Virus record (IMG/VR): IMGVR_UViG_3300037067_027643
Coordinates: 96,001 to 160,000 of that record
Direction: 5' to 3' (one strand)
Length of the DNA: 64,000 bases
Source of the DNA: a virus
Lineage: Duplodnaviria > Caudoviricetes
Of the stretch, positions 312 through 62,262 are shown piece after piece. A program made the translations under genes and the position numbers. How positions within the stretch are numbered: position 1 is the first letter of the stretch; each line of letters starts with the position of its first letter. Below the pieces are notes generated by a model. It saw nothing but the letters and a program-made list of their open reading frames with translations. It was not told the origin of the DNA and searched no databases.

Positions 312-578
312 TTATTTTTTCATACTTTTCAATATTCTATAAATTGTTGAAAGTTCGTTAGACATTAAATTATCTAATGATATCATACCAGATTTTATTG
401 AAGTTGCATGTGGGTGATACATTTCATAAATTTTTAATAGAATTTGATGTCTTTGAGTGCTATTTAGTTTATGCCATATTTTTTCATAATAAGGATCAAC
501 TTTACTTTCATTAATAACTTTCTTTGTAATATCTTCTACAAGTTTATTTAATTCTGAACGTTTAATTGTTGTTGCCAT
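312..578 (-). CDS. putative internal head protein with shared leader motif
   Basis: N-term IKRSELNKLVEDITKKVINE; AAAGGA SD; both early- and late-type promoters upstream. Confidence 0.6.
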   Translation of the reverse strand: MATTIKRSELNKLVEDITKKVINESKVDPYYEKIWHKLNSTQRHQILLKIYEMYHPHATSIKSGMISLDNLMSNELSTIYRILKSMKK

Positions 579-607
579 ATTTTATTTCCTTTTTTAAATT
601 TATACCA

Positions 608-639
608 CAAATATATAACTATTATTTTAATTTACCAAA
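608..639 (-). promoter_or_regulatory. Bacteroidota primary-sigma type promoter
   Basis: TTTG-N20-TATATTTG on minus strand, upstream of ORF starting at 578. Confidence 0.75.
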
Positions 640-649
640 TAATATATTA

Positions 650-660
650 TATAAATAGTA
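650..660 (-). promoter_or_regulatory. putative late promoter (ACTATTTATA)
   Basis: Recurrent intergenic motif, always oriented toward the downstream gene. Confidence 0.65.
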
Positions 661-668
661 AAATTATT

Positions 669-812
669 TTAATTATTACTTTTATTCATCAATCTTATAA
701 GTTTAACAAGGCCCAAAAAAACAACTATAAAACCAAGTACAACAAAAATCTTAATTGGTAATAATAGTCCAAATAAAAATATAATTGAAAATAGTATTGT
801 AAAATTCTTCAT
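669..812 (-). CDS. small membrane protein (47 aa)
   Basis: MKNFTILFSIIFLFGLLLPIKIFVVLGFIVVFLGLVKLIRL..., two hydrophobic stretches, fills the gap in the operon. Confidence 0.5.
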   Translation of the reverse strand: MKNFTILFSIIFLFGLLLPIKIFVVLGFIVVFLGLVKLIRLMNKSNN

Positions 813-825
813 ATTATTGCTTTAT

Positions 826-1260
826 TTATTTTAAAATCTTTTCAACTAACCTAATCGTCTCCTCGCTAGTGTTCTGCAACTGACGAAAATGTTCCAACTC
901 AATCTTATTATCAATCAAAAACTGATTAGCCTTCCTCACAATCTGTCTCTTAGCTCTTTCGTTTACCATCATCTTCTCACTCTCATAATCTCCAAACCAT
1001 CCACTTCTATAATATCTTCCATTATAACCCCAACATTTATTCCAACTAGTAATATGTTCGTGCCTATAATGTGTTATCATGTTAGCCAACCACAACACCT
1101 TCTCATCCTTTATCACAGTTTTAAGATATGCACTACAAGAGAATACATGATTGCAAATTGGACATCTGAGATTATAACCTGATTTATGATAGTTGAAAAG
1201 TGGATTCATTGGATTATGGTTTAAGTTAGCATATATTCTATTATCTTTAACATTACCCAA
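826..1260 (-). CDS. hypothetical protein with C2H2-like zinc finger
   Basis: CPIC ... MITHYRHEH. Confidence 0.55.
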   Translation of the reverse strand: MGNVKDNRIYANLNHNPMNPLFNYHKSGYNLRCPICNHVFSCSAYLKTVIKDEKVLWLANMITHYRHEHITSWNKCWGYNGRYYRSGWFGDYESEKMMVNERAKRQIVRKANQFLIDNKIELEHFRQLQNTSEETIRLVEKILK

Positions 1261-3022: not shown

Positions 3023-4117
3023 TTATTTTATTAATTGATAAACTATTTCTTTTAAACTTAAATCCATTTTTGCTTCTTCTTTATTTAATTCTATTATATA
3101 TTTTATTATTTTAAGCATTTCATTATCATTAAACCAATAACTAATTATTACATCATCTATTATATCTTTATCTGGAAATGTTGGTTGAAATATTCGAATA
3201 AATTTTAATATCATATTTACATATTTAAACATTTTTCCTAAATTATGTTTTTGAATATATCTATTAATATATTTCTTATTCATTATAATATCATTATAAT
3301 TTAATATATAATTTGGTATATGTGAATTTTCTTTTAATGTATCTACATTAATAATTTTTGGTAAATTATATAACGATATTTTATATAGTGTATATTGACT
3401 ATTTTTAATTAATTGAAGTTTTGTATAGTCATTTAATAATGAATTTATTTGTGTTAATTTTAAATTTTTAAATTTTAGTGGATGATGAAATTTACCTTCG
3501 ATTTCAAACACGTCATTTCCTATACGTATATCAAAATCTTTATTCTCAAAAATAAAATGATGTTCTCCTCCTATTATATCAAATATTTTATCTTCTGGAA
3601 TAGACCCCTTTCTTTTTTTATGAAATACATATACATTATCAATGTTATATCTATCTTTTATTGTCTGCCTATGTTTTTCGATATTATTATAATTTGGATC
3701 ATTATGATTTTTTTCTTTAGTTACTTTTATTTTATCTACTACTCCTGGTATATACATAGAATTAGTTACTCCATATTCTCTTAACATTGTTTCTACACAA
3801 GTCTTTTTCATTTTTTGTTTAGATTCTTCTGTATGTGGTTTTCTTGGAAAATGATTTTTTGTATAATCCCTAAACCAAATTCCAAACGGACTATCAACAA
3901 ATTTCATTTTTGTATTACATTTACCACATTTACATATCGGATATTCATTATTAAAATAATTTTGCATTATATATTGTTCATATGTTAACCCATGTACTCG
4001 TTTAATATGCCAATTTCTATCGTGCGCATTTTTAAATTTTACTCCATCTAAAATACATAATAATTCATGTTCTTTTGGAACTACATTTGCGTAACTTTTA
4101 TTTTGATTAATATTCAT
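3023..4117 (-). CDS. putative free-standing homing endonuclease (Zn finger + NUMOD3-like + PD-(D/E)xK/Vsr-like domain)
   Basis: CKCGKC, PHTEESKQKMK (NUMOD3-like), YGVTN repeat, DFDIRIGNDVFEIEGKFHH; sits right after the capsid gene terminator. Confidence 0.65.
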   Translation of the reverse strand: MNINQNKSYANVVPKEHELLCILDGVKFKNAHDRNWHIKRVHGLTYEQYIMQNYFNNEYPICKCGKCNTKMKFVDSPFGIWFRDYTKNHFPRKPHTEESKQKMKKTCVETMLREYGVTNSMYIPGVVDKIKVTKEKNHNDPNYNNIEKHRQTIKDRYNIDNVYVFHKKRKGSIPEDKIFDIIGGEHHFIFENKDFDIRIGNDVFEIEGKFHHPLKFKNLKLTQINSLLNDYTKLQLIKNSQYTLYKISLYNLPKIINVDTLKENSHIPNYILNYNDIIMNKKYINRYIQKHNLGKMFKYVNMILKFIRIFQPTFPDKDIIDDVIISYWFNDNEMLKIIKYIIELNKEEAKMDLSLKEIVYQLIK

Positions 4118-4255: not shown

Positions 4256-5932
4256 TTATACGTAGTTTAAGTGGGTTACCACTAGCTTTCCGAAAAATTC
4301 GGGGCGAACTATTTTTTTTGCATATCTCGTAAGTACACCTTTTCTCGGCGTGAAGTTAGTACTATCATATACTAATGGTGTCATAATCAATGGAACATAA
4401 GGACAAAAAACGGCACCGCACTCTAAGAACTGACTACCTCTAAATCCCATCAATATGATATTTTCTTTCATATAAGGATTTTTGTAAACAGTAAAGCGAT
4501 TATTCAATAAACCTACTTTTTGTACTCCCATTGCAAATTGCATTTGGTTTCCATCAGTATCAGCTGCATAACCAGGAATTGATTCGATTATAGTAGCAAT
4601 ATCAGGAGAGCAAACCATAAAGTTAGCACCACCACGCATTGTTTTTTGGTGAATCTTGTTGCTGATTTTTTGCAATTTAGTACCTAAAGTTTGGAACCAA
4701 GTCTGTTGAGTATATTTAAGAGCGTATCCACTTTGTAAATCTTGACTTGTAAAGTTAGATTCACCATTAGTAGTTTGTCCTGTGTGTACAGTTCCTATTT
4801 TAGCTGACCAATAATCAGTTGTGATAGCGTTAAGAATCAACATATCTAAGATTTCTAAGTCAATTTCCATTGAAATATATTCACTCAACATACTTGTTAA
4901 TTCTGCTTCAGCATCAATTGAATGGTAAGCGTTTAAGTCCTGTGCAAATTCAGGAGTCCATACTGCTTTTAACTTTTTAGTTTTAGCAACAATTGGTTCA
5001 CTTCTCAATGATACGTTTATTTCTGGGATATCTAATGCGTTAGCACCTACTGATGTACCAGGAGCGTATTTATCGGGACCAGTTGTTCCACTTCCCCATG
5101 CAGGATCACCTTGAGCTTGGAAATCACCTCTATCGTAAGCTAATGGAGCTTTGCTATATTTTACCAATACTGTTGAAGCACTACCACTACACATAAAGGT
5201 TACATAACGAGTTGAAGCTGCTCCAGCACTTGTTACAGGCATTGTATTAGCTGGGTAATAAGCTTCGATACCACTACCACTAATATAGAAACTTCTTACA
5301 CCTTCTACATCGTGATTGGTTGTATTCATATCTACAGTTACTCTTTTCATTTCATCTGCTGCTACAGAAGCACTTAATGGAGCTGAATAGTTACAATCTG
5401 CCCAAGAAGCTGAAGTAATAGTTGTTGATAAACTTGCTGTATAGTCGTTAGTACTATATCCAAATCTACCTGCACCATATAAACCTTGTTCTGCATCAAA
5501 TGTTTGGTTAGTAATACCAAATACTGAATTGTTTTGTTCGTAAGTAGTATTAGTAGTATTGAAACCTGGTTGATCAGTTCCATATTTGAAATCTAAGTAG
5601 AATACAAGTCCACTAGGTAAGTTCATTGGTTGTACTGATACGAAGTCTTTAGCTGCTATTTCTGCAAAGATACGTCTTACTAATGGTAAAGCTACTCCTG
5701 ACCATTCTTCTGCACCTGTTGCTGTTCCTGTTTGTGATACTTCACTGATTAACTGTCTTGCTTGGTTTTCTAACAAAATAGCCATTCCATCTCTTTCGTA
5801 ATCACTTTTAAGACCGTCTAACAGTCCTGTTTTTTCCCATTTCTGGTTCAGAGCAATACTATCATTACGCATATTTTTATACGTAGATTTTATTTGTCCC
5901 TCTCCTATCAAATCACTAAATTTTTTATTCAT
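4256..5932 (-). CDS. major capsid protein (T4 gp23-like)
   Basis: LPLVRR, VSVQPMNLPSGLVF, KLKAVWTPEFAQDLNAYHSIDAEAEL, EIDLEIL, PYVPL, TRYA motifs. Confidence 0.95.
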   Translation of the reverse strand: MNKKFSDLIGEGQIKSTYKNMRNDSIALNQKWEKTGLLDGLKSDYERDGMAILLENQARQLISEVSQTGTATGAEEWSGVALPLVRRIFAEIAAKDFVSVQPMNLPSGLVFYLDFKYGTDQPGFNTTNTTYEQNNSVFGITNQTFDAEQGLYGAGRFGYSTNDYTASLSTTITSASWADCNYSAPLSASVAADEMKRVTVDMNTTNHDVEGVRSFYISGSGIEAYYPANTMPVTSAGAASTRYVTFMCSGSASTVLVKYSKAPLAYDRGDFQAQGDPAWGSGTTGPDKYAPGTSVGANALDIPEINVSLRSEPIVAKTKKLKAVWTPEFAQDLNAYHSIDAEAELTSMLSEYISMEIDLEILDMLILNAITTDYWSAKIGTVHTGQTTNGESNFTSQDLQSGYALKYTQQTWFQTLGTKLQKISNKIHQKTMRGGANFMVCSPDIATIIESIPGYAADTDGNQMQFAMGVQKVGLLNNRFTVYKNPYMKENIILMGFRGSQFLECGAVFCPYVPLIMTPLVYDSTNFTPRKGVLTRYAKKIVRPEFFGKLVVTHLNYV

Positions 5933-5951
5933 AATTTTTTAATCTCCTTCT

Positions 5952-7094
5952 TTATTTTTTATTGTTTGTTTGTTTATTATCATTACTTATGTTTGCTAAT
6001 TTTTGAAAGCGATCTCTTATTTCATTACTTTCTAAAATAACTTTTTTCTTGTTAACTTGGGTATTACCGACTATTCCTGATGCAATACTTTCGGTTAATC
6101 TTTTTGTTGTTCCGTTTACTTCTTTTTTAACTGATGTGGATTTTAAACTTTCTACTAATGTTACATATACTAATTTTACTTCTCTTAAACTGTTAGCTTT
6201 ATCCATATTATCAATTATCTTTAGTTTTTGAGATTCTGATAATTTTTCATATTGTCTAAATAATTTGTTAGCATATAAAAGTTTACTATTTAACAAGTTA
6301 ACTTCATTCATAGTAGTTTTTAATGACTTAATAACTTTGATAGCTTCTGATAAGTTTTTTTCAGCTCTTGCTGTTTTTTTCTTTTGTTCTTCTAATTCGT
6401 AATTGTTATATTCGTCATTAGGTTCATCTTCTTCTTTCATATCAGCTACTAATTCATCAATGTTGATGTCTTCATCATCGTCATCTGTTTTAGGTTCTTC
6501 TGCTGGAATTTCTTCTTCCTCTGTAGTTGTTTCTTTAGGTTCATCTTCTACTGGATCAGTATCAACTGGAATGTCATCTTCATCATTGTCTTCGTTTTCC
6601 ATTTTGATTTCGTCATCTTCTGTAGCTGGGTTTTCATCACCTTCAAGTTCTTTTAAGATTTCTTCCAATTCTTTTTCATCTTCTGATTTTTCATCTTCTT
6701 CTTGAACTGGTTCATCTTCTGTTTTAGGTTCGTCGTCTTCGATGTCAATATCTTTGTCATCTTCTTCTGATACTACTGGTTCTTCAGTATCAATTTTTTC
6801 TCCGTCTTCTTCTTTTACTGTTTGATCATCGTCGGCTGTAGATTTTACTTCGTCTTCTCCATCATCTTCCATTCCTTCTTCGTTAGTTGCTACTGGTTCG
6901 TCTTCGACTTCGATATTTTCGTCGTCTTCTCCACCTTCAACTTCTTGTTTAATTTTTTCACTAAACATTGCCTGTAATTTAGGATTGAATGCATCTGCTA
7001 TTGCTATTTTTGCATTTTTTAATGCTACTTCTTTAATCTGTTTAGCATCTGCAATTGCTTCGTCAAACAATGTTTTGTTTGTTGTTTTTGCCAT
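5952..7094 (-). CDS. prohead core scaffolding protein (gp22-like)
   Basis: Highly acidic, coiled-coil C-term NEVNLLNSKLLY, many L/I-x-E sites, directly upstream of capsid gene. Confidence 0.8.
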   Translation of the reverse strand: MAKTTNKTLFDEAIADAKQIKEVALKNAKIAIADAFNPKLQAMFSEKIKQEVEGGEDDENIEVEDEPVATNEEGMEDDGEDEVKSTADDDQTVKEEDGEKIDTEEPVVSEEDDKDIDIEDDEPKTEDEPVQEEDEKSEDEKELEEILKELEGDENPATEDDEIKMENEDNDEDDIPVDTDPVEDEPKETTTEEEEIPAEEPKTDDDDEDINIDELVADMKEEDEPNDEYNNYELEEQKKKTARAEKNLSEAIKVIKSLKTTMNEVNLLNSKLLYANKLFRQYEKLSESQKLKIIDNMDKANSLREVKLVYVTLVESLKSTSVKKEVNGTTKRLTESIASGIVGNTQVNKKKVILESNEIRDRFQKLANISNDNKQTNNKK

Positions 7095-7240
7095 AATTTA
7101 ATATCTCCTTAATAAGATTATTTGTTGTTTTTAATAGAAAATTTGTTTGTGTTTTCTATAATATAGATACTAGGATTAATCTATAATAGTTCGTTTTGAA
7201 TTTTTTGGGATGACACATATAAAAATGTCATATTTTAATA

Positions 7241-7250
7241 TATAAGTAGT
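7241..7250 (-). promoter_or_regulatory. putative late promoter (ACTACTTATA variant)
   Basis: Variant of recurrent motif upstream of scaffold-capsid operon. Confidence 0.6.
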
Positions 7251-7308
7251 ATTAAAAAAATAAAAAATTTGGAAAGATGGAAATATTTTTGTATAGAAAT
7301 GACAACTT

Positions 7309-8013: not shown

Positions 8014-8018
8014 ATCAA

Positions 8019-8708
8019 TTAATAATATTTATCATAATTGTTTTTTGCTGCTCCATTAAAGAAAGTTAACGCTTGATCTAATCTACATGGACCTTTTATT
8101 GCTCCTAAATATTTCTTTTCTCCGCTTTTTGTAATAATATCAACTCTAGCTATATAAGCTATATTACCATTTGTAATTGATTTTGGTAATGGATTTAACG
8201 TGAATTCAATTTCTGGATATTTTTCTTTTAATTGTTCTAATGATAAATTGTTATTAGTTTCTTCTTGTTCTTTTAAAACTTTTCTAATTGTATTTTCTAT
8301 TAATGTATTTAATTCAGTTCTTTTCATTTTACTTTCTGTTTTTGGGTTTTCTAATTTTGGTATTCTTATTCTTAATATTGATTTACCATTAATAGTAGGT
8401 GACCCATGTTCATCTTTTCCAATTTCCTTTACTACTACTAGTTTATTAAGAAATTTTCCAGTCTTCACGGTATCTCCAGGTTCTATATCTATTGTAATTA
8501 CTTCTCTTAAAATAGCAGATAATGATAATTTTTTATTTTCATTTTTATTAACATACTTAGCAGCTAATTGATAAAACATACTTTCCAGTTCGTGTGTATT
8601 TATTCCAAGCTGATCAGAAAAATCATGAACATCACTATCTGGAATATTTCCATCTGGATACTGTTTTAAAAACTCAATAACCTTTTGTTTTATTTCTGCT
8701 TTGCTCAT
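8019..8708 (-). CDS. multi-module putative internal head protein
   Basis: Internal LSLSAILRE and MKRTELNTLIENTIRKVLKE motifs separate three modules. Confidence 0.55.
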   Translation of the reverse strand: MSKAEIKQKVIEFLKQYPDGNIPDSDVHDFSDQLGINTHELESMFYQLAAKYVNKNENKKLSLSAILREVITIDIEPGDTVKTGKFLNKLVVVKEIGKDEHGSPTINGKSILRIRIPKLENPKTESKMKRTELNTLIENTIRKVLKEQEETNNNLSLEQLKEKYPEIEFTLNPLPKSITNGNIAYIARVDIITKSGEKKYLGAIKGPCRLDQALTFFNGAAKNNYDKYY

Positions 8709-8723
8709 TGTTAGTATCCTCTA

Positions 8724-9053: not shown

Positions 9054-9076
9054 TAAATGGATTTTTAAATTTCTTA

Positions 9077-9331
9077 TTAAAAATTATTATTCATATAATA
9101 ACTAACAGCTGCCCATAAATCAACACTAATTACTCCATCTTTTATTTTTTTAGCATTATACTTGTAATGTCTATTATTATTTATCAATTCAATTTCTTTA
9201 TCTGTGTTTGATTCATTATATAATGTAATTATTATTTTATCTCCCTTTATTTCAAAGTGTTTTGCAGCATTTTCATTTAATACTTGTTTAACTTTATTTT
9301 CTATTAATTTTTCTAATTCTAACTTTTTCAT
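9077..9331 (-). CDS. putative internal head protein (shared leader)
   Basis: MKKLELEKLIENKVKQVLNE. Confidence 0.6.
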   Translation of the reverse strand: MKKLELEKLIENKVKQVLNENAAKHFEIKGDKIIITLYNESNTDKEIELINNNRHYKYNAKKIKDGVISVDLWAAVSYYMNNNF

Positions 9332-9358
9332 CTTATATTGTTCTCCTTTATTTTTTAT

Positions 9359-10009
9359 CTACAAATAGTCATCTTTTACCGGGCTAATTATCTTCCTTAA
9401 TTTACCATCAAAATTATTAAACAATTGATTTACATTGCTTATTATCTGTTCGTATTGTTCTCGATCTGTTTCAAATTCATCACTATTTCTTAAACAATCT
9501 ATTAAAGAATTGATGGCACTTTTTAATAATGGGAATGTTTTATCATCGTATTCATTGATTACATATACAGGAGTTGACGATTCTTTTAAAATAGTTCTTA
9601 CTGTATTTTCTATTAGTTTTTCCAGTTCTTTTTGTTTCATACTTAACTTTCCTTCATGTATTTTATTGTAATCCAATGTATAAGAACCATGTGTTGATTT
9701 ACTTGTTCCTGTAGAAAATAGTTGTCTATTAATAACTAAATTATACTTTTTTAATATCGTTGTCAATTCTTTTTGTATAGTATTTTCTGAAATAGTAAAA
9801 CTTTTAGCTCTCTTAAAAGCCGATTCCATTATTATTGTTAATTCGAACTGACCATCGTTATTTAAATCATATTGAAATGCTAATATATCAGGATAATAAT
9901 CTAAACGAGACGTTTTTTTAGCCCATTCTATTATCTTATCAATTTTTATTTTAGCCTCTTTGGAAGCCTTTTTAATATCGTTAATTTGATCTGGTGTAAT
10001 ACTAGCCAT
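9359..10009 (-). CDS. putative internal head protein (internal leader motif)
   Basis: Internal MKQKELEKLIENTVRTILKE starting at 9640. Confidence 0.55.
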   Translation of the reverse strand: MASITPDQINDIKKASKEAKIKIDKIIEWAKKTSRLDYYPDILAFQYDLNNDGQFELTIIMESAFKRAKSFTISENTIQKELTTILKKYNLVINRQLFSTGTSKSTHGSYTLDYNKIHEGKLSMKQKELEKLIENTVRTILKESSTPVYVINEYDDKTFPLLKSAINSLIDCLRNSDEFETDREQYEQIISNVNQLFNNFDGKLRKIISPVKDDYL

Positions 10010-10026
10010 TATTTATATTTTCCTAT

Positions 10027-11115
10027 TTATTTCTTGATAGATTCGATTCTTTTCAATTGTTGAGCGTGTTCTAACTGTTTTGCAAATTTATTTAACATTT
10101 GAATTTTCTTTTCCATTTCTGTAGATTTATGATTGATAAAGTTATTAACTCCATGTATAAATCCTTTTACCCAATCTATTAATTTTGATACTACATTAGC
10201 TTCGTTCTTTTTCTTTAATTCACCTTTTAATGATGGAGCTACTTTTGTAATTTTATAAGAAGTGTCTATCATCTTTTTAACAGATTCTATCATGTCTTTT
10301 GTTAATTCACTTTTATCTAACTGTTCCAAAAATGTATCCATTTTAAAATCTTTTCTTTCACTTTCTTTAGATAATGTAATTAACATTCTATTAGTTTCAA
10401 TTACTCTGGTATAAAGTTTATCTTCATCATTAAATATTTCTGATATATACTGCTTAATTTGTGGATCTATACTTTCTTTTAATATTTTTAGTTTATTTAA
10501 TTCAGTTACTATTTCTTCATATTGAGATACTATACGATTTACATAACCGGATTTTTGTTTATGAAGTTCGGCTATTACTTTACCCCCACCATTTTTAGCT
10601 TCTTTGACCAAATATTCGATATCAGTACTTCTGTTTTCATTTAATTTATTTTCTATTAAAGCTTCTACATGTATTTTATCAAATAATTTTTCATGTACAA
10701 CATCTGCTACAGCAGTATCACCTAATCCAGCATTTGGATATTTATCATATATTTTTTTATAAACTATACCAAACTTATCAATTAATTTATCTAACAAATT
10801 GGTAACAGTTTCACCTTCTTCTTGTGATTTACATAATAAAGCATATTTATTAACATTTGTTAAATACCATTCATTTTCTTCATTAATTATACATCTAACA
10901 ATATTCTCAATTATTTTTTCTATCGCTTCTTTTTTCATTTTCTTAGGTAATCCTTTCGTTGGTGTTTCGGCATAATCTTTAACATCTTTTTCTTTCATAT
11001 TATTAGCAACATCCTTTACATTCTTACTAACATCAGATGATTTAATATCACCTTTCTGAACTGCATGTACTACATTAAAGAATTTTTGTTGAGCTTTTGA
11101 AACTGCTGGACACAT
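10027..11115 (-). CDS. DUF3008-like N-terminal module fused to leader-tagged modules
   Basis: PAVSKAQQ...QKG...AETPTKGLP resembles DUF3008; then MKKEAIEKIIENIVRCIINE. Confidence 0.55.
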   Translation of the reverse strand: MCPAVSKAQQKFFNVVHAVQKGDIKSSDVSKNVKDVANNMKEKDVKDYAETPTKGLPKKMKKEAIEKIIENIVRCIINEENEWYLTNVNKYALLCKSQEEGETVTNLLDKLIDKFGIVYKKIYDKYPNAGLGDTAVADVVHEKLFDKIHVEALIENKLNENRSTDIEYLVKEAKNGGGKVIAELHKQKSGYVNRIVSQYEEIVTELNKLKILKESIDPQIKQYISEIFNDEDKLYTRVIETNRMLITLSKESERKDFKMDTFLEQLDKSELTKDMIESVKKMIDTSYKITKVAPSLKGELKKKNEANVVSKLIDWVKGFIHGVNNFINHKSTEMEKKIQMLNKFAKQLEHAQQLKRIESIKK

Positions 11116-11130
11116 ATTTGTTATTTCCTT

Positions 11131-11514
11131 TTACTTTATTGTATTAAAAATATAATCTGCTAAAACATGTCGCATTATTTCAAAGTGTAATACAGAACTA
11201 TCATGTGATGTTCTTGATTGAACATGTATTTTAAGCTTCTTAGTTAAATTATTTTCTATTCCTTGTACAAATACATCTAATGTATCTTTATCTTCCATTT
11301 CCTCTATTAATTCTAAGTCTCTATGTGTTTTTGGTGTAAGTGTAATTATAACTGTATCTGATTTTAAAATTAATCCAAATTGAAATGTAATCATACTATT
11401 ATTTATAGTCTTATATCTAAGATCTTCACTTTCATTTAATCTAATAGTTCTTTTAGACGATGAATTAATCATCATACAATCATTTTCAAGTAAGAATTCT
11501 TTTAGAGATGGCAT
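11131..11514 (-). CDS. putative internal head protein (short leader)
   Basis: MPSLKEFLLE resembles T4 capsid-targeting sequence MKTYQEFIAE. Confidence 0.55.
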   Translation of the reverse strand: MPSLKEFLLENDCMMINSSSKRTIRLNESEDLRYKTINNSMITFQFGLILKSDTVIITLTPKTHRDLELIEEMEDKDTLDVFVQGIENNLTKKLKIHVQSRTSHDSSVLHFEIMRHVLADYIFNTIK

Positions 11515-11541: not shown

Positions 11542-12294
11542 TTATTCTAAACTATTAACAAATGATATAAAACTACTATCTCTTGTTAATTTTGAATATG
11601 CTTTTAACCATTTCATAAAAATTTGAAAATTAATTAATGGAAAATAGACATCTAAAGATTGTATTTTTTCATCACTTATTTTTATTTTACCAGTGTCAAC
11701 TCTCTCGTCAATATCTTTAATAATTTTATCTAATTTCAAATATTTATCTTCGCCAATTCTATTAAGTAGTCCAGTACATAATGATTCTTTTTCAATTAAT
11801 GTTTCATATATATAACTATGTCTAATTAAACTCTTAATTCTTAAAATATTTGTTCTTTTATCATCTTCTTTTAAAATCTTTCTTATTTTATTTTCTATCA
11901 AAGTTTCTAATGATTTAATCTTTTTACTTTCATTTACATTAGGAATAAAATAAATTATCTTTTTATTATTAAGTAATACAATATGCTTCTTATCATAGTT
12001 ATAATAAACAGAACAACAATAAGGTTTTCCTTTATTTATAGTTTGTGATATATAATCATACAATTCTACTCCACTTCTAAACTGTAATGTTGCTTTATCA
12101 TCATTATCAATAATATCAAATACTTGATACTGAACAGATTTATATAAACCCATCAAATCAGATAAAAACTTTTTCTCTTGCCATTCTGGAGTTCTTACAT
12201 TATCTTTATTTAATGTATCAATACTAGCTAAATTTTGATAATTCTTTGATTTACTTAAATCATCGATAGTTGGTAAAACCATATTTATTGCCAT
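11542..12294 (-). CDS. putative internal head protein (internal leader motif)
   Basis: SLETLIENKIRKILKE internal. Confidence 0.55.
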   Translation of the reverse strand: MAINMVLPTIDDLSKSKNYQNLASIDTLNKDNVRTPEWQEKKFLSDLMGLYKSVQYQVFDIIDNDDKATLQFRSGVELYDYISQTINKGKPYCCSVYYNYDKKHIVLLNNKKIIYFIPNVNESKKIKSLETLIENKIRKILKEDDKRTNILRIKSLIRHSYIYETLIEKESLCTGLLNRIGEDKYLKLDKIIKDIDERVDTGKIKISDEKIQSLDVYFPLINFQIFMKWLKAYSKLTRDSSFISFVNSLE

Positions 12295-12305: not shown

Positions 12306-12899
12306 TTATTTTGTTTTAAAAGCTTTCTTTTTATTATTAACTGATTCTTTTTGAACATCTTTGATATCATAGTATCTATTTAAGATAGAACCAATGTTTT
12401 CAAAGTTTCCTTCCAATCTTTTTTGTAATATAGTAACATCCTTAGCTGTTTTCTCAAAGTTTTTTAAAGCGTCGTTTAACGACTTGAAGTCACGTTGAAT
12501 TGAGGAAATATCACTCCAATCATCTGTTTCTTCTAACGCGATTTGTTCAGCGAGTTTGCCTATTTGTAGCATCTCTTTACAGATTTCTTTCAAATTTCCT
12601 TCTCTATAAATAGATTCACTATACTTATTGAAATCGGCTACTGCTTCTCTAAAAGCATTTTTCATCTCTTTAGTAACCTCTTTACTTCCTTCTTCCTCTT
12701 GACCAAATAACAGTTTTTTCTTTTCCGTTGGTTTAGAGTCATTATCAACTGGTTTTCCTTCGTCATCCATTTCATACAATACCTTTCCATCCCAGCCACG
12801 CGCGTAAGATGGACCATCATTACCTGTTTTAATTCCATCTAAAAGACTGATATTTACTTCATTAAGAAGTGTTTTTAATTTTGTATCATTTTTTGCCAT
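12306..12899 (-). CDS. conserved head-module protein (possible prohead core component)
   Basis: KLKTLLNE leader, helical C-term ENIGSILNRYYDI; position in head module. Confidence 0.5.
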   Translation of the reverse strand: MAKNDTKLKTLLNEVNISLLDGIKTGNDGPSYARGWDGKVLYEMDDEGKPVDNDSKPTEKKKLLFGQEEEGSKEVTKEMKNAFREAVADFNKYSESIYREGNLKEICKEMLQIGKLAEQIALEETDDWSDISSIQRDFKSLNDALKNFEKTAKDVTILQKRLEGNFENIGSILNRYYDIKDVQKESVNNKKKAFKTK

Positions 12900-12915: not shown

Positions 12916-13275
12916 TTATTTATATAATTTTAATATCTTATCTTTAAATTCATTCATTAATTGAATTATATCTATTAAATGATCACTATGTTTATCCATC
13001 ATAATCTGACCATATTCATTTTCTACCCACATAGCCATACTCCTTATAATATATTGATAGTGATAATGTCTGATTGCAGTTAATAAATCTCTATAATGTT
13101 TAAAATATTGTTCAAATGTTACTTTATTATTAGTAAACAAATCAAATGTTCTTCTATCAATTTGAAATAAATCTCTACATACTTCTACATAAGTCATCTC
13201 AGGAGTGATTCTAAATTCCTTTAAAATCTTCCTTACTTTATTTTCAATTAATATTTCTAATTCTTTTCGATTCAT
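12916..13275 (-). CDS. putative internal head protein (shared leader)
   Basis: MNRKELEILIENKVRKILKE. Confidence 0.6.
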   Translation of the reverse strand: MNRKELEILIENKVRKILKEFRITPEMTYVEVCRDLFQIDRRTFDLFTNNKVTFEQYFKHYRDLLTAIRHYHYQYIIRSMAMWVENEYGQIMMDKHSDHLIDIIQLMNEFKDKILKLYK

Positions 13276-13618: not shown

Positions 13619-13975
13619 TTATTTATTAGCTATAATTTTTTTTAATTTAAACGCATTTGCTTTAGTTTCAATATTATAAGTATTTTGTGCTGTTTCAAAC
13701 TCTTTATAAACTTTTATCCATCTATTATAATCTTCTTTTAATCTATTTAATAAATTTATCATATCCGAAGTTTTAAATAATTCTGGGTTTGATTTTAAAA
13801 TCGAAGTTAATTCTGTATGTAATTCTTTAACCCAAGGTACCCATTCAGAATCTTTACCAACATTTGATATAAGCATTACATTTAATATCTTAGTAATTTC
13901 TTTAGGATCCAAATTTTCTTTTAATATTTCTCTTACTTTATTTTCTATTAAAATTTCTAATTCTTTTTGTTTCAT
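13619..13975 (-). CDS. putative internal head protein (shared leader)
   Basis: MKQKELEILIENKVREILKE. Confidence 0.6.
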   Translation of the reverse strand: MKQKELEILIENKVREILKENLDPKEITKILNVMLISNVGKDSEWVPWVKELHTELTSILKSNPELFKTSDMINLLNRLKEDYNRWIKVYKEFETAQNTYNIETKANAFKLKKIIANK

Positions 13976-14695: not shown

Positions 14696-15031
14696 TTAAG
14701 AACCTAAATGTTTCATCTTTTGATTTAGTCTTGTTATTCTTTCTTGTATTCGATTAATTTTTTGCTTGGTCTGCTCCCAATAGTGATCTGAACTAACACT
14801 AGCTTCTTGTTTTAATCGTGAAGCATGTGTAGCAAGTCTTTCTATTTGCAAAAGTTTACTATTAATCTCAGAAATAGCTCTATTGACTTTCTTTCTTGGA
14901 GTATCATCATTTTCTGTTTTAAAGACTCCATAGCTTACTTCGTTTAAATCAACTTTATCTTGTTCTTGATGTTCAATTATGACTTTATTTACTATTTGTT
15001 CTATTAATTGTTCAAGTTCTGTTCTGTTCAT
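14696..15031 (-). CDS. putative internal head/core protein (shared leader)
   Basis: MNRTELEQLIEQIVNKVIIE. Confidence 0.6.
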   Translation of the reverse strand: MNRTELEQLIEQIVNKVIIEHQEQDKVDLNEVSYGVFKTENDDTPRKKVNRAISEINSKLLQIERLATHASRLKQEASVSSDHYWEQTKQKINRIQERITRLNQKMKHLGS

Positions 15032-15036: not shown

Positions 15037-15330
15037 CTATTTCCCTTGATTGTTTTTTAGGTATTCAACTATTGACATAAATATATTATGAAAATCTTTC
15101 ATATAATTTACTAATTTAGTATCATGTGTTTTGTCAAATTCGCGTTTTAGTAATGTATAACAGTTGATATAATGTTTATAGCATTGTTTAATTGTATCTG
15201 CTAAATGCACATCTTGTGATAAGGTAATAACACTTTCTAACAATGAATTTAATGATTCTTCATTAAGGTTTTCTGATACTATCGCTCTTACTCGATTTTC
15301 TATTAGTTTTTCTAATTCTTTTTGTTTCAT
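15037..15330 (-). CDS. putative internal head protein (shared leader)
   Basis: MKQKELEKLIENRVRAIVSE. Confidence 0.6.
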   Translation of the reverse strand: MKQKELEKLIENRVRAIVSENLNEESLNSLLESVITLSQDVHLADTIKQCYKHYINCYTLLKREFDKTHDTKLVNYMKDFHNIFMSIVEYLKNNQGK

Positions 15331-15338: not shown

Positions 15339-15992
15339 CTACTCCATACCAAACTTCTTAATCATATCTTTAAACTCTGCACTTTGTAAAAATTTAATTT
15401 CCTTATTTGGTAATTCTTTCCAAGTAACTCCTTTATTTTTTTCCAAATATTTCTTAGCTAATTTTAATTCAGCATCATTAGCGAATTTAATTGATTCTTT
15501 TTCTTTGTTTATTTTAGGTTGATAAAATTTAATTTTCTTCCCTGTTTGTGGATTAATAGTATTATCTTCTTTCTTTTTTGGTGTTTCTTTACTTTTAGCA
15601 TCTTTGGCTTTAGTACTATTTGGATGTTTTTCTATATAATCTTTCTGACCTTCTGCACCCAAATCATTCCACCAATCTTCATTCATTAATACTGTATTAG
15701 CCATTTCTTTTAACGTTCTTGTAACAACAGGAACCTCTCTTCCCTTATTATCTGCTTTTTCTTTCTTACCAACTCTAGTCATCCCACTCATATTAGATAC
15801 TTTATCATTAGTAGTAGATGAGAATGCCCCCGGAGTTTGATATCCGGGAACTCCCGCAGTAGTTGACATTTCATCTATATCGTCTTCTTCATTATCTTTT
15901 TTAATATCTTCTTTTTTAACTGTTCTCTTATTTTCAGATAATGCTTTGATAACTAAGTCTTCTATAATTTTATCTAATTCACTTCTTTTCAT
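15339..15992 (-). CDS. multi-module putative internal head protein (shared leader)
   Basis: MKRSELDKIIEDLVIKALSE; modules EMSTTAGVPGYQTP, EDWWNDL..QKDYIEKHPNS, NPQTGKKIK. Confidence 0.6.
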   Translation of the reverse strand: MKRSELDKIIEDLVIKALSENKRTVKKEDIKKDNEEDDIDEMSTTAGVPGYQTPGAFSSTTNDKVSNMSGMTRVGKKEKADNKGREVPVVTRTLKEMANTVLMNEDWWNDLGAEGQKDYIEKHPNSTKAKDAKSKETPKKKEDNTINPQTGKKIKFYQPKINKEKESIKFANDAELKLAKKYLEKNKGVTWKELPNKEIKFLQSAEFKDMIKKFGME

Positions 15993-16009: not shown

Positions 16010-16558
16010 TTAAAATTTATTATCATTTCTTAGTTGCTGTATTGTTTTTAATATATCAGATACATAATCTCTTTTTAATTTTAAATCATCATAACTAGGA
16101 AATGTACGACTTACATTTAAATCTTTATCATCTCGTTTCATTTTATCAATTTTATTAATAACCTTAGTCATAATAGCATTATCCTTTTGCATGCTTCTTA
16201 TTATTTTATCGCGTTTATCTCTTGACTGTTTTTTAATATGTTCAACTCCAACATTTATACCATCCTTATATGTCTTTCCAGTTGTATTATTTTCTATAGT
16301 ATCAATTAATTTATTTGTCTCACTACTTCCAATTTTATCAATTTTTTTATTTACTTTAGGATGTGTATCTTTAGCAACCATGTTCTTTGCTGTTTTGTAT
16401 ACAGGGGAATTTTTATCATAACTTAATGCCGTTGATAATTTTATATCTCTTCCTGTTTTTGGGTTTTTTATTGTTTTATCATAATCAGTTTCTGATAACA
16501 CTTTTTTTGTAATATCTTCTACTAACTTATTTAATTCACTTCTTTTAATTGTTGTCAT
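16010..16558 (-). CDS. putative internal head protein (shared leader)
   Basis: MTTIKRSELNKLVEDITKKVLSE; IKNPKTGRDIK module. Confidence 0.6.
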   Translation of the reverse strand: MTTIKRSELNKLVEDITKKVLSETDYDKTIKNPKTGRDIKLSTALSYDKNSPVYKTAKNMVAKDTHPKVNKKIDKIGSSETNKLIDTIENNTTGKTYKDGINVGVEHIKKQSRDKRDKIIRSMQKDNAIMTKVINKIDKMKRDDKDLNVSRTFPSYDDLKLKRDYVSDILKTIQQLRNDNKF

Positions 16559-17488: not shown

Positions 17489-17499
17489 TATAAATAGTA
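17489..17499 (-). promoter_or_regulatory. putative late promoter (ACTATTTATA)
   Basis: Recurrent motif. Confidence 0.65.
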
Positions 17500-33111: not shown

Positions 33112-33729
33112 TTATTCTTCTGATTTCATTAATTTGACAGCTTCTTTATATTTTTCATTAGCTGTAGCAAGTTCTCTATCTAAATTTTTAATGATATCAA
33201 TATGACGATCACGTAATTTCATCTTTTTATCTCTATCTTTTTCACCTTTGAAATCATGTACAAAAGATTTCATTAAACCTTCTTTTTTATTATTTAAATC
33301 CACAACATGTTTTTCTAATACTGAGATATCTACATTTTCTTTTAATACTCGTTTAACTGTATTTTCTATTAATCGTTCTAATTCACTTCTTTTCATATTT
33401 ATTTTTCCTTCGTTTTTATTATTGTATGGTAATGGATAATCTTTTAAAGTTTTATTATACAAGTCAATTGCTTCCTTTTCATCTACAATCCCGCTTTTTA
33501 TAAGTTTAATATAATAGAAACCGTTTTCAGTTAAGTGATCTCTACTGACTTCGGAAGCTAAATCATCCCGTTGTCCAGTATGTTCGCGCTCTATAATAAT
33601 ACCAACATCTAATTGTTTTTGAATAAAATCCACAGGTAAATCATGTTTTTTAGCTATGTCTTTTACAGACATCTTGTCGCCTTTACCACCTGGAATTAAA
33701 TCTTCATTTAATAAACTTCTAAGTTTCAT
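33112..33729 (-). CDS. DUF5661-like protein with leader motifs
   Basis: GIIIEREHT...RDHLTENGFYYIKL; MKLRSLLNE and internal MKRSELERLIENTVKRVLKE. Confidence 0.6.
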   Translation of the reverse strand: MKLRSLLNEDLIPGGKGDKMSVKDIAKKHDLPVDFIQKQLDVGIIIEREHTGQRDDLASEVSRDHLTENGFYYIKLIKSGIVDEKEAIDLYNKTLKDYPLPYNNKNEGKINMKRSELERLIENTVKRVLKENVDISVLEKHVVDLNNKKEGLMKSFVHDFKGEKDRDKKMKLRDRHIDIIKNLDRELATANEKYKEAVKLMKSEE

Positions 33730-33744: not shown

Positions 33745-34026
33745 TTAATTTTTATAACTACCATCATTTTTAAAATGTGTAAGATAAAATTTTATTTCAT
33801 TATCACTCATTTTTCTATCATCTACTTTTTTACCATGTTGATATATTTCAATACCTTTAGAAATTCCATGTTTATCTTCTATATATTTTACTTCCATTGG
33901 ATTTCCTTTCATATCTTTTAATTTTAATGTTTCTCCTGACATTAATCTTTGATAAAATGTATTAGATTCTTTTAAAATTTGTCTAACTTTATTTTCAATT
34001 AAAATATTTAATTCTGATAGTTTCAT
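33745..34026 (-). CDS. putative internal head protein (shared leader)
   Basis: MKLSELNILIENKVRQILKE. Confidence 0.6.
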   Translation of the reverse strand: MKLSELNILIENKVRQILKESNTFYQRLMSGETLKLKDMKGNPMEVKYIEDKHGISKGIEIYQHGKKVDDRKMSDNEIKFYLTHFKNDGSYKN

Positions 34027-34610: not shown

Positions 34611-35111
34611 TTAATTTTGATATGGACGTATTTGTTTTAAAACTTCTGTTTCTGGAATAGCAAAATCCCAATGTGAAAAATCTTTATTTTGAATTTCGTA
34701 AGAATGTTTACCATTTTTAAATCCAATATATTTTAATTTAAAAATTCCACCTAAACCACTATCAGTTTTATAATATTTATTTTTTTCAGTTAAATCTTTT
34801 ATTGTATATTGTTCTTCTTTTATAATTTCTCTTACTTTATTTTCTATTAAATTTTCTAATTCTTGTTTTTTCATAACTTCCTTTATTATTTTTTTAACAT
34901 CTATATTTTCATTTATATGATTTAACCTCCATTGATAAAAATAATCTAATGCTTCCAGTTCTCTTTTATCATGAAATCGTTGTTTGGCATCTTGATATAT
35001 TTTTGATAATTTTACTTTATCCCTAATATTACCAAAAAGTTTTTCTAATATACTTCCAGCAAATAAAGCCCAAAAACTTATTTCTTGATGTGTTAATTCG
35101 TTGATATTCAT
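34611..35111 (-). CDS. putative internal head protein (internal leader motif)
   Basis: MKKQELENLIENKVREIIKE internal. Confidence 0.55.
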   Translation of the reverse strand: MNINELTHQEISFWALFAGSILEKLFGNIRDKVKLSKIYQDAKQRFHDKRELEALDYFYQWRLNHINENIDVKKIIKEVMKKQELENLIENKVREIIKEEQYTIKDLTEKNKYYKTDSGLGGIFKLKYIGFKNGKHSYEIQNKDFSHWDFAIPETEVLKQIRPYQN

Positions 35112-51472: not shown

Positions 51473-51802
51473 TTATTTATTATTTATTATTTCTCTTATT
51501 TTGTTTTCTATTAATTGTTCTAATTTATTTAAATTGTTATTATTTTCCTTTATAACAATAAAATCTGTTAACGATTGATTTAATAAATCATTAATCTTAT
51601 TATCACTATAATTAGTAATATTTTTTATTTTTGTTTTTATATCATTTTTATTTCCTTCAAATTGCACTCTTCCATTTCTATATAGTACATACCAATCACC
51701 TTTACCAGCTCTTAATTTAAGACTGTTCATCTCACTTGATGATTTAAGTGGTTGTTCAGATAATTGTTTTTGATTTGAAGATTTCATTAAAAAATGATAC
51801 AT
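51473..51802 (-). CDS. putative internal head protein (C-terminal leader-like motif)
   Basis: LNKLEQLIENKIREII at C-term; late promoter at 51817. Confidence 0.5.
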   Translation of the reverse strand: MYHFLMKSSNQKQLSEQPLKSSSEMNSLKLRAGKGDWYVLYRNGRVQFEGNKNDIKTKIKNITNYSDNKINDLLNQSLTDFIVIKENNNNLNKLEQLIENKIREIINNK

Positions 51803-59654: not shown

Positions 59655-59660
59655 AACAAG

Positions 59661-60278
59661 ATGGAAAACAGACAAATTCTTAGACAAATAACAGCTAATT
59701 ACAAAAAACTACAGGAATATCCATTCATGAGTATTCATCCTGAAATAATGGCTAATCGTTTAAGATATCAATCAGAATTAGATAAATTATTTAATGAATT
59801 TGGAATACATGGAGCGATGTTAGATAATACAACAATTGATAATAATGCTTTAATTAAATTAATGAAAAGATTAAATAACTTTTTAAATAAATACAAAATA
59901 AAAGATATTGACCCAATGAGTACTAAACAATTAGAAATGGAACAACAGGTTCATCGAGAACTTTATAAAATGATGAATGAAGTAGAAACAGATAATAAAG
60001 AAGCTAATAAAGATGAAAAACTTGAACAATTACTAAATGATATGAATGATATTTCTACTTTACTTTCTAAAAAATTTAATGAACTTAAAAAGAGCGAGGA
60101 ACAATTAATAGCAGCTAATACATCAGAAGATGAATATGGAACAATACAATCAGAAAACATGAAAGAATCATTAAGTTCAATTAAGAAAACATTAGTAAAC
60201 TTAGGTAAGACATATCAATTCTTTTTGACTTATATTGAAAAATATGGGTATTCAACAACAAAAAATAAGGAGAATTAA
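59661..60278 (+). CDS. hypothetical helical protein
   Basis: ORF in neck operon. Confidence 0.55.
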   Translation: MENRQILRQITANYKKLQEYPFMSIHPEIMANRLRYQSELDKLFNEFGIHGAMLDNTTIDNNALIKLMKRLNNFLNKYKIKDIDPMSTKQLEMEQQVHRELYKMMNEVETDNKEANKDEKLEQLLNDMNDISTLLSKKFNELKKSEEQLIAANTSEDEYGTIQSENMKESLSSIKKTLVNLGKTYQFFLTYIEKYGYSTTKNKEN

Positions 60279-60280
60279 AG

Positions 60281-60823
60281 ATGTGTGCTATGTGGGGTAG
60301 TAGTCGTGATGTAAGTTTCTTTAGACAAATAAATAGAGAGATGTTCGGTAGAATACTTCAACAAGAAGTAGATATTTATAAAGCGGCTATATATCAAGAA
60401 GATATTAATTTATATGGAGAAACTTTAAATAAATTATTTTTTAAAGGTGTTAGATTAGCTGGACTAGTTGGTACAGAAACAGAAACAGTAGATTATGAAG
60501 AAAATAATTTAGATACCGGACAAAATTCAATATTTAGATTTTTAAGGGATGATTTAAAAGCAAGAAATATAGTATTAGATATAGGTGATATAATTCATTG
60601 GGATAATAAATATTGGGAAGTAGATAATACAAATGAAAGCAATTATTTTATGGGAAGAAATCCAGATACTAATAAATCAATTGGAAGTGGATTTGGATGG
60701 AATATATCAATTGTTTGTCCTTGTCACTTAACCAAGAAAAGTACAATTAGTAAATTAGAAAAAGTTAGAGCTGGTAAGAACACTCAAAATAAATCAACTA
60801 AAAAGAAAAACAATCTATACTAA
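60281..60823 (+). CDS. neck / head closure protein (T4 gp14-like)
   Basis: NLYGE, F.FLRDDL, IGDII.W...YWEV; synteny. Confidence 0.7.
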   Translation: MCAMWGSSRDVSFFRQINREMFGRILQQEVDIYKAAIYQEDINLYGETLNKLFFKGVRLAGLVGTETETVDYEENNLDTGQNSIFRFLRDDLKARNIVLDIGDIIHWDNKYWEVDNTNESNYFMGRNPDTNKSIGSGFGWNISIVCPCHLTKKSTISKLEKVRAGKNTQNKSTKKKNNLY

Positions 60824-60835
60824 TATATATTATAA

Positions 60836-61636
60836 ATGACTCCAAGAACACCTAAAATAAAATCTCAAACTGAATTATCCTCAGGAAAACCTGATAAAAG
60901 GATTCGTGCAAATGATATTCGTAGAGATGAAGATACACATGGAGATTTAAGAATTGGATTATATGACATAGATGGTTGCATTCAATATTACTTTGACAAT
61001 GTTATTAAACCAAGAGTAATGGAAGGAGATGAAGTAATTGATGTTCCTTGTTTATTTAGCAATCCTGAACGTTGGGTATCAGTACAAAGAGATGGATATT
61101 ATAGGGATACAAAAGGAAAGATTCAATGTCCTCTTATCATGTTAAAAAGAACAAGTATATCAAAGAATAGAGATTTAGCGAGAAACATAGATGCTAATAT
61201 GCCAAGAGTGATAAGAACATTTACAACCAATTATTCTAAAAAAAATAATTATGATGCTTGGAGTGTATTAACAAATACAAAAAAAACTAAAGAACAATAT
61301 AATGTAGTAATTCCTGATTATGTAAAACTTACCTATGAATGTATGATTTGGACTTCTTATATCGAACAACTAAATAAGGTACAAGAAGCGATTAGTTATG
61401 CAGAAAGTTCATATTGGGGAGATCCAGATGAGTTTAAATTTTTAGCTGTAATAAATGAATTTAGCAATCAAACAGAAGTAAGTGATGGTAAGGATAGAAT
61501 GATAAGATGTAATTTTACTATTAATTTGAACGGATATATAATATCCAATGCATTACAGAAACAGATTAATGAATATCAAAAGAACTTTACTACACAAATT
61601 ATTAAAATTGATGGAAAGATTATAGGAGAGCAATAA
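60836..61636 (+). CDS. tail terminator / sheath stabiliser (T4 gp15-like)
   Basis: VP......PERW, PLI..KR, P.YV.LTY...IWT; synteny. Confidence 0.7.
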   Translation: MTPRTPKIKSQTELSSGKPDKRIRANDIRRDEDTHGDLRIGLYDIDGCIQYYFDNVIKPRVMEGDEVIDVPCLFSNPERWVSVQRDGYYRDTKGKIQCPLIMLKRTSISKNRDLARNIDANMPRVIRTFTTNYSKKNNYDAWSVLTNTKKTKEQYNVVIPDYVKLTYECMIWTSYIEQLNKVQEAISYAESSYWGDPDEFKFLAVINEFSNQTEVSDGKDRMIRCNFTINLNGYIISNALQKQINEYQKNFTTQIIKIDGKIIGEQ

Positions 61637-61638
61637 AA

Positions 61639-62262
61639 ATGGACCAATACCACAATAAATTAGCCTTTTACACTAGAGATAAACGTTTATATATTCTCAT
61701 AATAGATAATGTCAATAATAGTACTGGTATGGTCTATTTCAAACCTAATGAAGCTTATAGACTAAGAACCGATTTAACCTTTGGTCAATATGAAACTACT
61801 AAAACAAATCTTTCAAATTTTCCAATTGGAATGAAGATGGATCGATTACCGGGTGGAAAAGCTATATTAATGGAAACAGTTAAATACTCAAATGTTCCTA
61901 CACTTTTACAATCAGAAAAACTTAGACAATGGTTAGCTAATCGTTTTAATTATGAATCTAAACGACAAAAATTAGAAAAATTAATAGAAAATACAATTAG
62001 ACGAATATTAAAAGAAGAAAGTGCATTAGTAGCTCCTAATAAAAATTTATGTTTAACTGATTTTAATGCTGTTATTAATTTAGGAGATAAACTTCAAAAT
62101 ATCACAACTGGAGTAGAATTTACTGTTGATAGTATAGAAAATGGAATCTTAACAGGAACAATAATTCAATCTGGATATGAATCACTTTCACAACTTGGAA
62201 AAGAAATTAAGGTTGGATTAAATCTTATTGGAAATAAATACAAAATAGTAAACAAAAAATAA
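61639..62262 (+). CDS. putative internal head protein (internal leader motif)
   Basis: KLEKLIENTIRRILKE. Confidence 0.5.
   Translation: MDQYHNKLAFYTRDKRLYILIIDNVNNSTGMVYFKPNEAYRLRTDLTFGQYETTKTNLSNFPIGMKMDRLPGGKAILMETVKYSNVPTLLQSEKLRQWLANRFNYESKRQKLEKLIENTIRRILKEESALVAPNKNLCLTDFNAVINLGDKLQNITTGVEFTVDSIENGILTGTIIQSGYESLSQLGKEIKVGLNLIGNKYKIVNKK

Follow-up and report, generated by a model that had tools for sequence, protein, structure and literature searches.

Background

The principle of a capsid-targeting sequence (CTS) working together with the protease gp21 has been known since the 1990s. In phage T4 the CTS is carried by IPI, IPII, IPIII and Alt and is removed by the prohead protease gp21 (Mullaney and Black 1996; PMC9026906, PMC3012670). 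The propeptides of the T4 internal proteins are 10-19 residues long, and in the IPIII leader residues 4 and 7 are needed for targeting and residues 8 and 10 for processing (PMC9026906). In the T4 record, IPII and IPIII begin with MKTYQEFIAE/A (here and below, a slash follows the Glu of the site), and IPI has a 19-residue leader. An Asp at position 10 of the T4 CTS blocks processing. In the giant phages SPN3US and phiKZ, head proteins with long N-terminal propeptides, and paralogs whose first 15 residues are identical, are cut after x-x-Glu by gp21-related proteases (PMC5694885). The present study concerns a peptide tag of about 20 residues that recurs on small proteins encoded in a 64,000-nucleotide stretch of viral DNA (IMG/VR record IMGVR_UViG_3300037067_027643, bases 96001-160000; hereafter the window), which is part of a single 285,744-bp genome of an uncultured T4-like phage with 25.5% G+C. 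From the sequence and the analyses described below, it appears rather probable that this tag is a lineage-specific, lengthened version of the T4 CTS, which would load proteins into the head and then be cut off. Positions are those of the window unless the genome is named, and open reading frames (ORFs) are given by their span or by its first position.

A conserved peptide tag on otherwise unrelated proteins

The tag, with the consensus MKxxELExLIENxVRxhhxE (h, hydrophobic), was found on 19 small late proteins that are otherwise unrelated. The earlier note on this DNA had listed 17 ORFs with the motif N-terminal in 312, 9077, 12916, 13619, 14696, 15037, 15339, 16010 and 33745, internal in 8019, 9359, 10027, 11542, 33112, 34611 and 61639, and C-terminal in 51473, and all 17 were confirmed to carry it at these places (Table 1). 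A strict regular expression matched 15 times in the window versus 0 times in each of 20 shuffles. When a profile hidden Markov model (HMM) was run on the whole genome, 19 carriers were returned with E values from 1e-11 to 9e-5, the next best match having an E value of 0.07; 17 of these carriers lie inside the window and the remaining two at genome 63016-63333 and 180092-180724. By place, 11 of the 19 copies are N-terminal, 6 are internal (tag end at residue 80-148) and 2 are C-terminal. Residues L6, L9, I10, E11, N12, V/I14, the hydrophobic residues 17 and 18, and E20 are near-invariant, and in a divergent subtype, comprising the 312 and 16010 copies, the tag begins at residue 5-6.

The attached domains had been described as dissimilar, and this was supported by an all-against-all BLASTP comparison of the 19 carriers, which gave no match at E<=0.01 once the tag was masked. 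The parts beyond the tag have lengths of 64-283 residues, and most of them are basic.

The tag copies differ in their codons for Leu, Ile, Val and Arg, and the flanking DNA is not conserved. The observation that the copies in 312 and 16010 are nearly identical as peptides and differ at synonymous sites also held: they share 19 identical residues, have 6 synonymous codon differences and lie in unrelated flanks. Among these codon differences are CGT/AGA and TCA/AGT, which need two or three base changes. The synonymous differences between the two copies therefore indicate selection on the peptide, and the tag family is real and under peptide-level selection.

This result bears on an alternative in which the repeat is mainly a DNA or RNA element, either a site of recombination or a 5' coding region that enhances translation, and the peptide is incidental. 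Codon identity among the tags is 0.78 versus 0.65 expected from the codon usage of the genome, a GGA element resembling a ribosome-binding site is retained at four of five internal tag Met codons, and rearrangement breakpoints fall in or at the tag, as described below, all of which speak for such an element. However, there are two- and three-base synonymous changes, it is residue class and not bases that is conserved, 5' coding enhancement is impossible for internal and C-terminal copies, and the lack of conserved flanking DNA also speaks against it, so that we consider this alternative very unlikely.

In addition to the long tag, the earlier note had recognized a class of short leaders. These were found on 7309, 11131, 12306, 33112 and three ORFs outside the window, but the pattern of the short class is weak: a generic hydrophobic-hydrophobic-x-Glu is present within the first 14 residues of 33 of 476 ORFs. 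Outside the window, a P-loop kinase resembling zeta-toxin/AAA_33 proteins (genome 191257-192084, minus strand; L052) starts with MISLKQILIE and has the late-promoter-like motif described below 15 nucleotides (nt) upstream; it is a candidate enzyme cargo with a short leader.

The terminal glutamate and the prohead protease site

All 17 tag copies that have a domain beyond them end in hydrophobic-hydrophobic-x-Glu (ILKE, VLKE, IVSE and similar), whereas neither of the two C-terminal tags, which end in IINNK and ILNKLNK, has the Glu. The ortholog of one of these C-terminal-tag proteins in a relative of this phage runs about 70 residues past the tag, and the tag end there is IIKE. The tie between the Glu and a downstream domain fits the prediction of a release site, and a plain binding helix does not predict it.

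The end of the tag was compared with the maturation sites of head proteins. When the three capsid proteins were aligned, LISE(64)/V in the major capsid protein of this genome and IVSE/A in that of Flavobacterium phage immuto fell at the maturation site FLTE(65)/A of T4 gp23; LISE/V matches the hydrophobic-hydrophobic-x-Glu pattern of the tag end. LISE also occurs near the C-terminus of the protease 13993-14670, and T4 gp21 is processed C-terminally (PMC9026906). The start of the scaffold-like protein, ...LFDE/A, stands where T4 gp22 has LIAE/A. Within the last ten tag residues, V14, I17, L18 and E20 have the spacing of the key residues of the IPIII leader, a resemblance of pattern and not a test of homology.

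Head module, proteases and probable late transcription units

The head module in the window is of the T4 type, and every gene in it is on the minus strand. Eleven carriers are located between the portal gene and the scaffold gene, around a prohead serine protease of the gp21 family (13993-14670) that has 48% identity to the immuto protease and 33-35% to gp21 of T4-type (Straboviridae) phages. This protease retains the motifs ELDHP and SSRGLG (His, Ser), which align with T4 gp21. A copy of the tag was not found in the scaffold-like protein by profile or by sequence check. When window bases 1-25000 were compared by megablast with deposited phages, the only DNA match was a 195-nt stretch of the capsid gene of immuto.

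The gene 7309-8013, whose position could suggest a prohead protease, was rejected as such and encodes a SprT-like zincin with a HEMIH motif, which may be a packaged or a processing peptidase. The possibility was considered that the tag is a processing signal for this metalloprotease, in the manner of the metallopeptidases that cut polyvalent proteins. The zincin gene is intact, has its own short leader and lies in the same operon as the carriers, and Iyer et al. (2017) proposed that such peptidases process polyvalent proteins (PMC5512222). Against this, the end of the tag matches the site pattern of the gp21 family as well as the aligned site in the capsid protein, and there is no evidence that ties SprT-like enzymes to Glu-specific cuts; we regard this explanation as most improbable.

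The portal gene, the head operon (16578), a sheath-like gene (62638) and other large structural-looking genes are preceded, at a distance of 15-80 nt, by a motif, TTTT(A)ACTATTTATAT(A)AATA. Its 10-nt core, ACTATTTATA, occurs 40 times in the genome versus 10 expected. The motif in its form TTTTACTATTTATATAAATA heads all seven transcription units that hold carriers, namely the head operon, 312, the 35116-to-33112 operon, 51473, the 58437-to-62262 operon, genome 63016, and the pair 84687/84092 (window numbering). Because it resembles the T4 late promoter TATAAATA and because of the genes that lie downstream of it, the motif is probably the late promoter of this phage, in an extended form.

Module exchange at the tag in a relative

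A pattern scan identified a relative of this phage in six metagenome contigs from one sample (Ga0172381; L007, L010, L029, L035, L039 and L045). Protein identity to the relative is roughly 70-95% and the non-carrier genes are colinear, but of 13 carriers that can be compared, 8 have a rearrangement exactly at the tag. The ortholog of 9359-10009 begins at the tag Met and is without the 123-residue N-domain. Orthologs of 11542-12294 keep the N-domain and have a different domain beyond the tag, and the ortholog of 34611-35111 likewise keeps its N-domain, with both the tag and the C-domain replaced. At the 9077 locus the cargo beyond the tag is replaced, and a C-domain is added to the C-terminal-tag protein. 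In the ortholog of 14696-15031 a short ...KLLNE leader takes the place of the tag, and the counterpart of 15339-15992 is a 396-residue protein consisting of an N-domain, the tag and an insert. No counterpart of 16010-16558 was found in the relative, which has two additional inserted tagged genes (P0005 and P0006). The breakpoints lie inside the tag or at its edge.

The tag is a joint for module exchange between related phages, which is new, and the placement of the breakpoints suggests that recombination uses the tag DNA. Among the internal tags that start with Met, 4 of 5 keep the GGA element 5-18 nt upstream, compared with 17% of other internal ATGs (p about 0.004), which is consistent with either a recent fusion or initiation within the ORF, for which T4 gene 21 is an example.

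These rearrangements are also relevant to the idea that the tag is a remnant of one ancestral small prohead-core gene, duplicated many times and diverged elsewhere, so that it would have no portable address function. Carriers do stand in tandem beside the protease, where T4 has gp67 and gp68, many of them are short and helical, and weak similarity is seen just past the tag in some pairs. On the other hand, that similarity is gone once the tag is masked, C-terminal tags exist, the unrelated known domains DUF3008 and DUF5661 lie upstream of internal tags, and orthologs in the relative match on one side of the tag and differ on the other, which indicates module exchange and not divergence. Descent of all carriers from one such gene is in our view quite unlikely.

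Because each module boundary carries about 60 nt of similar DNA, the tag would also serve as a joint for the gain, loss, fusion and swapping of modules between related phages. A bolder proposal, which we put forward only tentatively and with some doubt, is that the tag is a cassette boundary on two levels: the peptide would address the prohead and mark the cut, the DNA of about 60 nt would be the joint at which modules are shuffled, fused and split between co-infecting phages, and an internal tag that keeps its ATG and the GGA element may give both the fusion and the tagged C-module from one ORF. The whole would then be a system for diversifying capsid cargo.

Occurrence of the tag and of similar peptides elsewhere

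The earlier note had proposed that carriers be counted elsewhere with an HMM; a profile search of 1.84 billion representative proteins returned 41 carriers at E<=1e-3, of which about 19 belong to this genome, about 8 to the close relative and about 14 to others. All 41 are small unnamed proteins from uncultured phages, and the 10 carrier clusters that were looked up come from short metagenome contigs. The distant carriers include internal tags that start with Met and proteins with two tags (P0034 and P0039). Identical proteins occur on a 318-kb contig. In IMG/VR, an exact match to the tag pattern was not found, nor was any relative found by a search with the protease, and a tblastn search of deposited phages with one carrier gave no match.

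Immuto genes 199 and 191, which are orthologous to 15339 and to the DUF5661 protein 33112, have related but different tag-like leaders (MKKSQ...). Lineage-specific leaders seem to be general in this branch of T4-like phages. Immuto (L001) also has a repeated N-terminal leader of its own, NF-D/N-L-K/R-x-FL-x-ENKLT...LKE, in the adjacent genes 29011-29310, 29310-30311 and 22474-22701.

Proposed role of the tag in head assembly

The interpretation in the earlier note, that the tag directs proteins to the capsid and is released by a protease, is supported by the presence of a head module with a gp21-family protease, the pattern of the tag end, the link between the Glu and a downstream domain, and the late units, all of which are indirect. 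Under this interpretation the carriers would be made late in infection, and the helical tag would dock them on the scaffold core as the prohead assembles. The protease 13993-14670 would then cut after the tag-end Glu (for example in ILKE), with a second cut probable after the invariant LIE at the centre of the tag, and the downstream domain, freed inside the head, could exit with the DNA at infection. An internal tag would allow one tag to carry two modules, like a polyprotein or a long propeptide, and for a C-terminal tag a release site would not be needed.

Several findings weigh against this role. Hydrophobic-x-Glu is frequent in this proteome, which is rich in Lys, Glu, Ile and Leu, as the count of ORF starts given above illustrates, and the matching of sites is for that reason weak evidence alone. 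The amphipathic character that the earlier note had assigned to the helix was only weakly borne out, its helical hydrophobic moment being not significantly above that of shuffled sequences. Internal and C-terminal positions of the tag are without direct precedent in the T4 CTS. In an AlphaFold model of ORF 9077-9331 (3-sequence alignment, predicted local distance difference test score (pLDDT) 75), the tag helix lies packed within a compact alpha/beta unit and does not project as a free leader. Furthermore, HTH_17 DNA-binding proteins encoded by mobile elements of Bacteroidota begin with a helix nearly identical to the core of the tag (ELESLIENSVRKVL), and an internal LEKLIENTIRRVLDEK helix is present in a family of proteins of about 195 residues from unrelated viral contigs, outside head modules. 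The core motif is thus not exclusive to capsid cargo. In the profile search no HTH_17 protein reached E<=1e-3, and an HTH_17 domain was not found in any carrier.

The HTH_17 proteins are 110-127 residues long and their genes adjoin BT4734-like/PriCT_2 primase genes (contigs L012, L014, L016, L019 and L042). The family of about 195 residues is found on viral-looking contigs of 31-34% G+C (L013, L030, L031 and L036), and its neighbours on L030 are not head genes.

Some of these findings would suit a shared docking or oligomerization helix that stays uncleaved and joins the carriers to each other or to a hub other than the capsid, such as a late cytoplasmic or DNA-associated complex. Dimerization is plausible for the HTH_17 proteins that begin with the core motif, a protein-binding helix could occur at N-terminal, internal and C-terminal positions as the tag does, and the AlphaFold model packs the tag on its own cargo. 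Such a helix would nevertheless leave unexplained why the terminal Glu is kept only where a domain follows, why the invariant LIE and the hydrophobic-hydrophobic-x-Glu end match the maturation site of the capsid protein, and why eleven carriers are clustered around the protease, in the interval from the portal gene to the scaffold gene. We judge this explanation unlikely, and capsid targeting with release by the gp21-family protease is the reading that we prefer.

The suggestion that the cargo consists of anti-defence or takeover effectors received no support, the only Pfam matches of the cargo being DUF3008 and DUF5661. Besides these two domains, Pfam and PHROG searches of the carriers gave just sub-threshold matches, and a homolog search with the mature part of ORF 15339-15992 returned only its own sequence. 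The best matches in the PDB to the model of ORF 9077-9331 had Z scores of about 6 (small aminotransferase C-terminal domains), below the level that would indicate more than a common arrangement. The AlphaFold model of ORF 8019-8708 is of low confidence (pLDDT 56), with the tag modeled as a helix. For the part of ORF 10027-11115 past the tag, the best cluster in the ESM Atlas scored 0.78 and 11% of the cluster members carry phiKZ_IP, which may be taken as a lead only.

Neighbouring genes and feature coordinates

The coordinates of the tag copies, the head genes and the promoter-like motif are collected in Table 1. A homolog of ribosomal protein S21 sits among the tagged genes (8724-9053, minus strand). 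Almost all genes of the head cluster (4256-17447) have AAGGA(G/A) 8-15 nt before the start, and GGA is present there in just 13% of ORF starts in the genome. The portal gene has 1211 codons as a result of an intein (Pfam Intein_splicing, residues 411-830) that splits the Portal_T4 domain. Residues of about 283-371 of the large terminase match non-terminase PHROGs, one of them labelled ribonucleotide reductase, and may be an inserted element, for example an intein. Just downstream of the capsid gene lie genes for Cys/His-rich zinc-finger-like proteins (2384-2965 and 3023-4117, minus strand), the first of which matches Pfam ROS_MUCR (E 5e-6).

Table 1. Positions in the window of tag copies, short-leader carriers, head genes and copies of the late-promoter-like motif
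Feature	Position	Strand	ORF	Remarks
Tag, divergent	504..563	-	312-578	own late-promoter-like motif upstream
Tag, internal	8265..8327	-	8019-8708	residues 128-148
Tag, N-terminal	9269..9331	-	9077-9331	
Tag, internal	9578..9640	-	9359-10009	residues 124-144
Tag, internal	10876..10938	-	10027-11115	residues 60-80, immediately past DUF3008 domain
Tag, internal	11863..11925	-	11542-12294	residues 124-144
Tag, N-terminal	13213..13275	-	12916-13275	
Tag, N-terminal	13913..13975	-	13619-13975	MKQKELEILIENKVREILKEN, near consensus
Tag, N-terminal	14969..15031	-	14696-15031	
Tag, N-terminal	15268..15330	-	15037-15330	90% identical ortholog P0002
Tag, N-terminal	15930..15992	-	15339-15992	mature part common to Flavobacterium phage immuto gene 199
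Tag, divergent	16487..16546	-	16010-16558	KRSELNKLVEDITKKVLSE
Tag, internal	33334..33396	-	33112-33729	residues 112-132; also short leader MKLRSLLNE and DUF5661 domain
Tag, N-terminal	33964..34026	-	33745-34026	
Tag, internal	34812..34874	-	34611-35111	residues 80-100
Tag, C-terminal	51476..51538	-	51473-51802	end IINNK, without terminal Glu
Tag, internal	61957..62019	+	61639-62262	residues 107-127; fifth gene of late unit starting at 58437
Short-class carrier	11131..11514	-		MPSLKEFLLE
Short-class carrier	12306..12899	-		MAKNDTKLKTLLNE
SprT-like metalloprotease (HEMIH)	7309-8013	-		short-class carrier in head operon, leader MISLKKILQE
Major capsid protein, gp23-like	4256-5932	-		PHROG major head protein, E 9e-70
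Scaffold-like (gp22-like) protein	5952-7094	-		acidic; proposed docking partner
Prohead serine protease, gp21-family	13993-14670	-		proposed tag cutter; Pfam Peptidase_S77 (PF03420), E 9e-34
Portal, gp20-like, with intein	17515-21150	-		Pfam Portal_T4; bounds main carrier cluster upstream
Large terminase	23343-25523	-		726 residues
Late-promoter-like motif before head operon	17489..17498	-		core ACTATTTATA, full form TTTTACTATTTATATAAATA
Late-promoter-like motif, further copies	about 659, 21210, 23320, 33036, 35425, 51826	-		
Late-promoter-like motif, further copies	about 58382, 62579	+		

Comparison with known systems

If the proposed role is correct, the head of this T4-like phage, with its Bacteroidota-type host, is loaded with about 20-25 different small proteins, several-fold the handful of T4, and module exchange at the tag renews this cargo set quickly. 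The tag would also provide a defined 20-residue peptide with a matching protease for trying the packaging of foreign proteins in phages of the group, and a simple sequence rule to pick out candidates for injection among the proteins of uncultured phages. Concrete predictions that can be tested follow from the tie between the Glu and a downstream module, and from the rearrangements at the tag.

The closest described system is the T4 CTS. Both are short leaders common to unrelated small basic proteins, start with MK and end in hydrophobic-hydrophobic-x-Glu; the tag of 20 residues is close in length to the 19-residue IPI leader, the carrier genes are partly dispersed in both phages, and head genes of the gp20, gp21, gp22 and gp23 types are present here too. 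The tag differs in that its sequence is not demonstrably homologous to MKTYQEFIAE, the MK start and the hydrophobic/Glu spacing being all that is common to two short peptides. There are 19 carriers of the long tag and about 7 of short leaders here, and most of them have their genes in the stretch from the portal gene to the scaffold gene. In T4 the CTS is known to act in packaging and to be cleaved; for the tag, both are proposed. The variable internal-protein genes of T-even phages likewise show fast turnover of cargo between related phages with the leader kept (PMC3012670; PMC9026906), but here exchange takes place within single ORFs too, as seen in the metagenome contigs of one relative.

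The propeptides of about 125 residues in SPN3US and phiKZ, which have several cut sites, can be compared with the 80-148 residues that end at internal tags here, and in both cases N-termini are conserved on diverged proteins. Those phages belong to another lineage without a T4-type scaffold, their motif is Ala/Ser/Gly-x-Glu, and a portable 20-residue cassette is not described there. Polyvalent proteins (PMC5512222) resemble the carriers in having several unrelated modules in a late protein that is presumably delivered together with the DNA and then split into units. They are large, however, with up to 15 domains and a metallopeptidase domain of their own, whereas the carriers have at most two modules split by the tag and the SprT-like peptidase is encoded by a separate gene; a Pfam search of the carriers did not find a domain typical of polyvalent proteins.

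In conclusion, a shared CTS on diverse internal proteins has already been published (PMC3012670, PMC9026906), and what this phage adds is a matter of extent and architecture, not a new kind of system.

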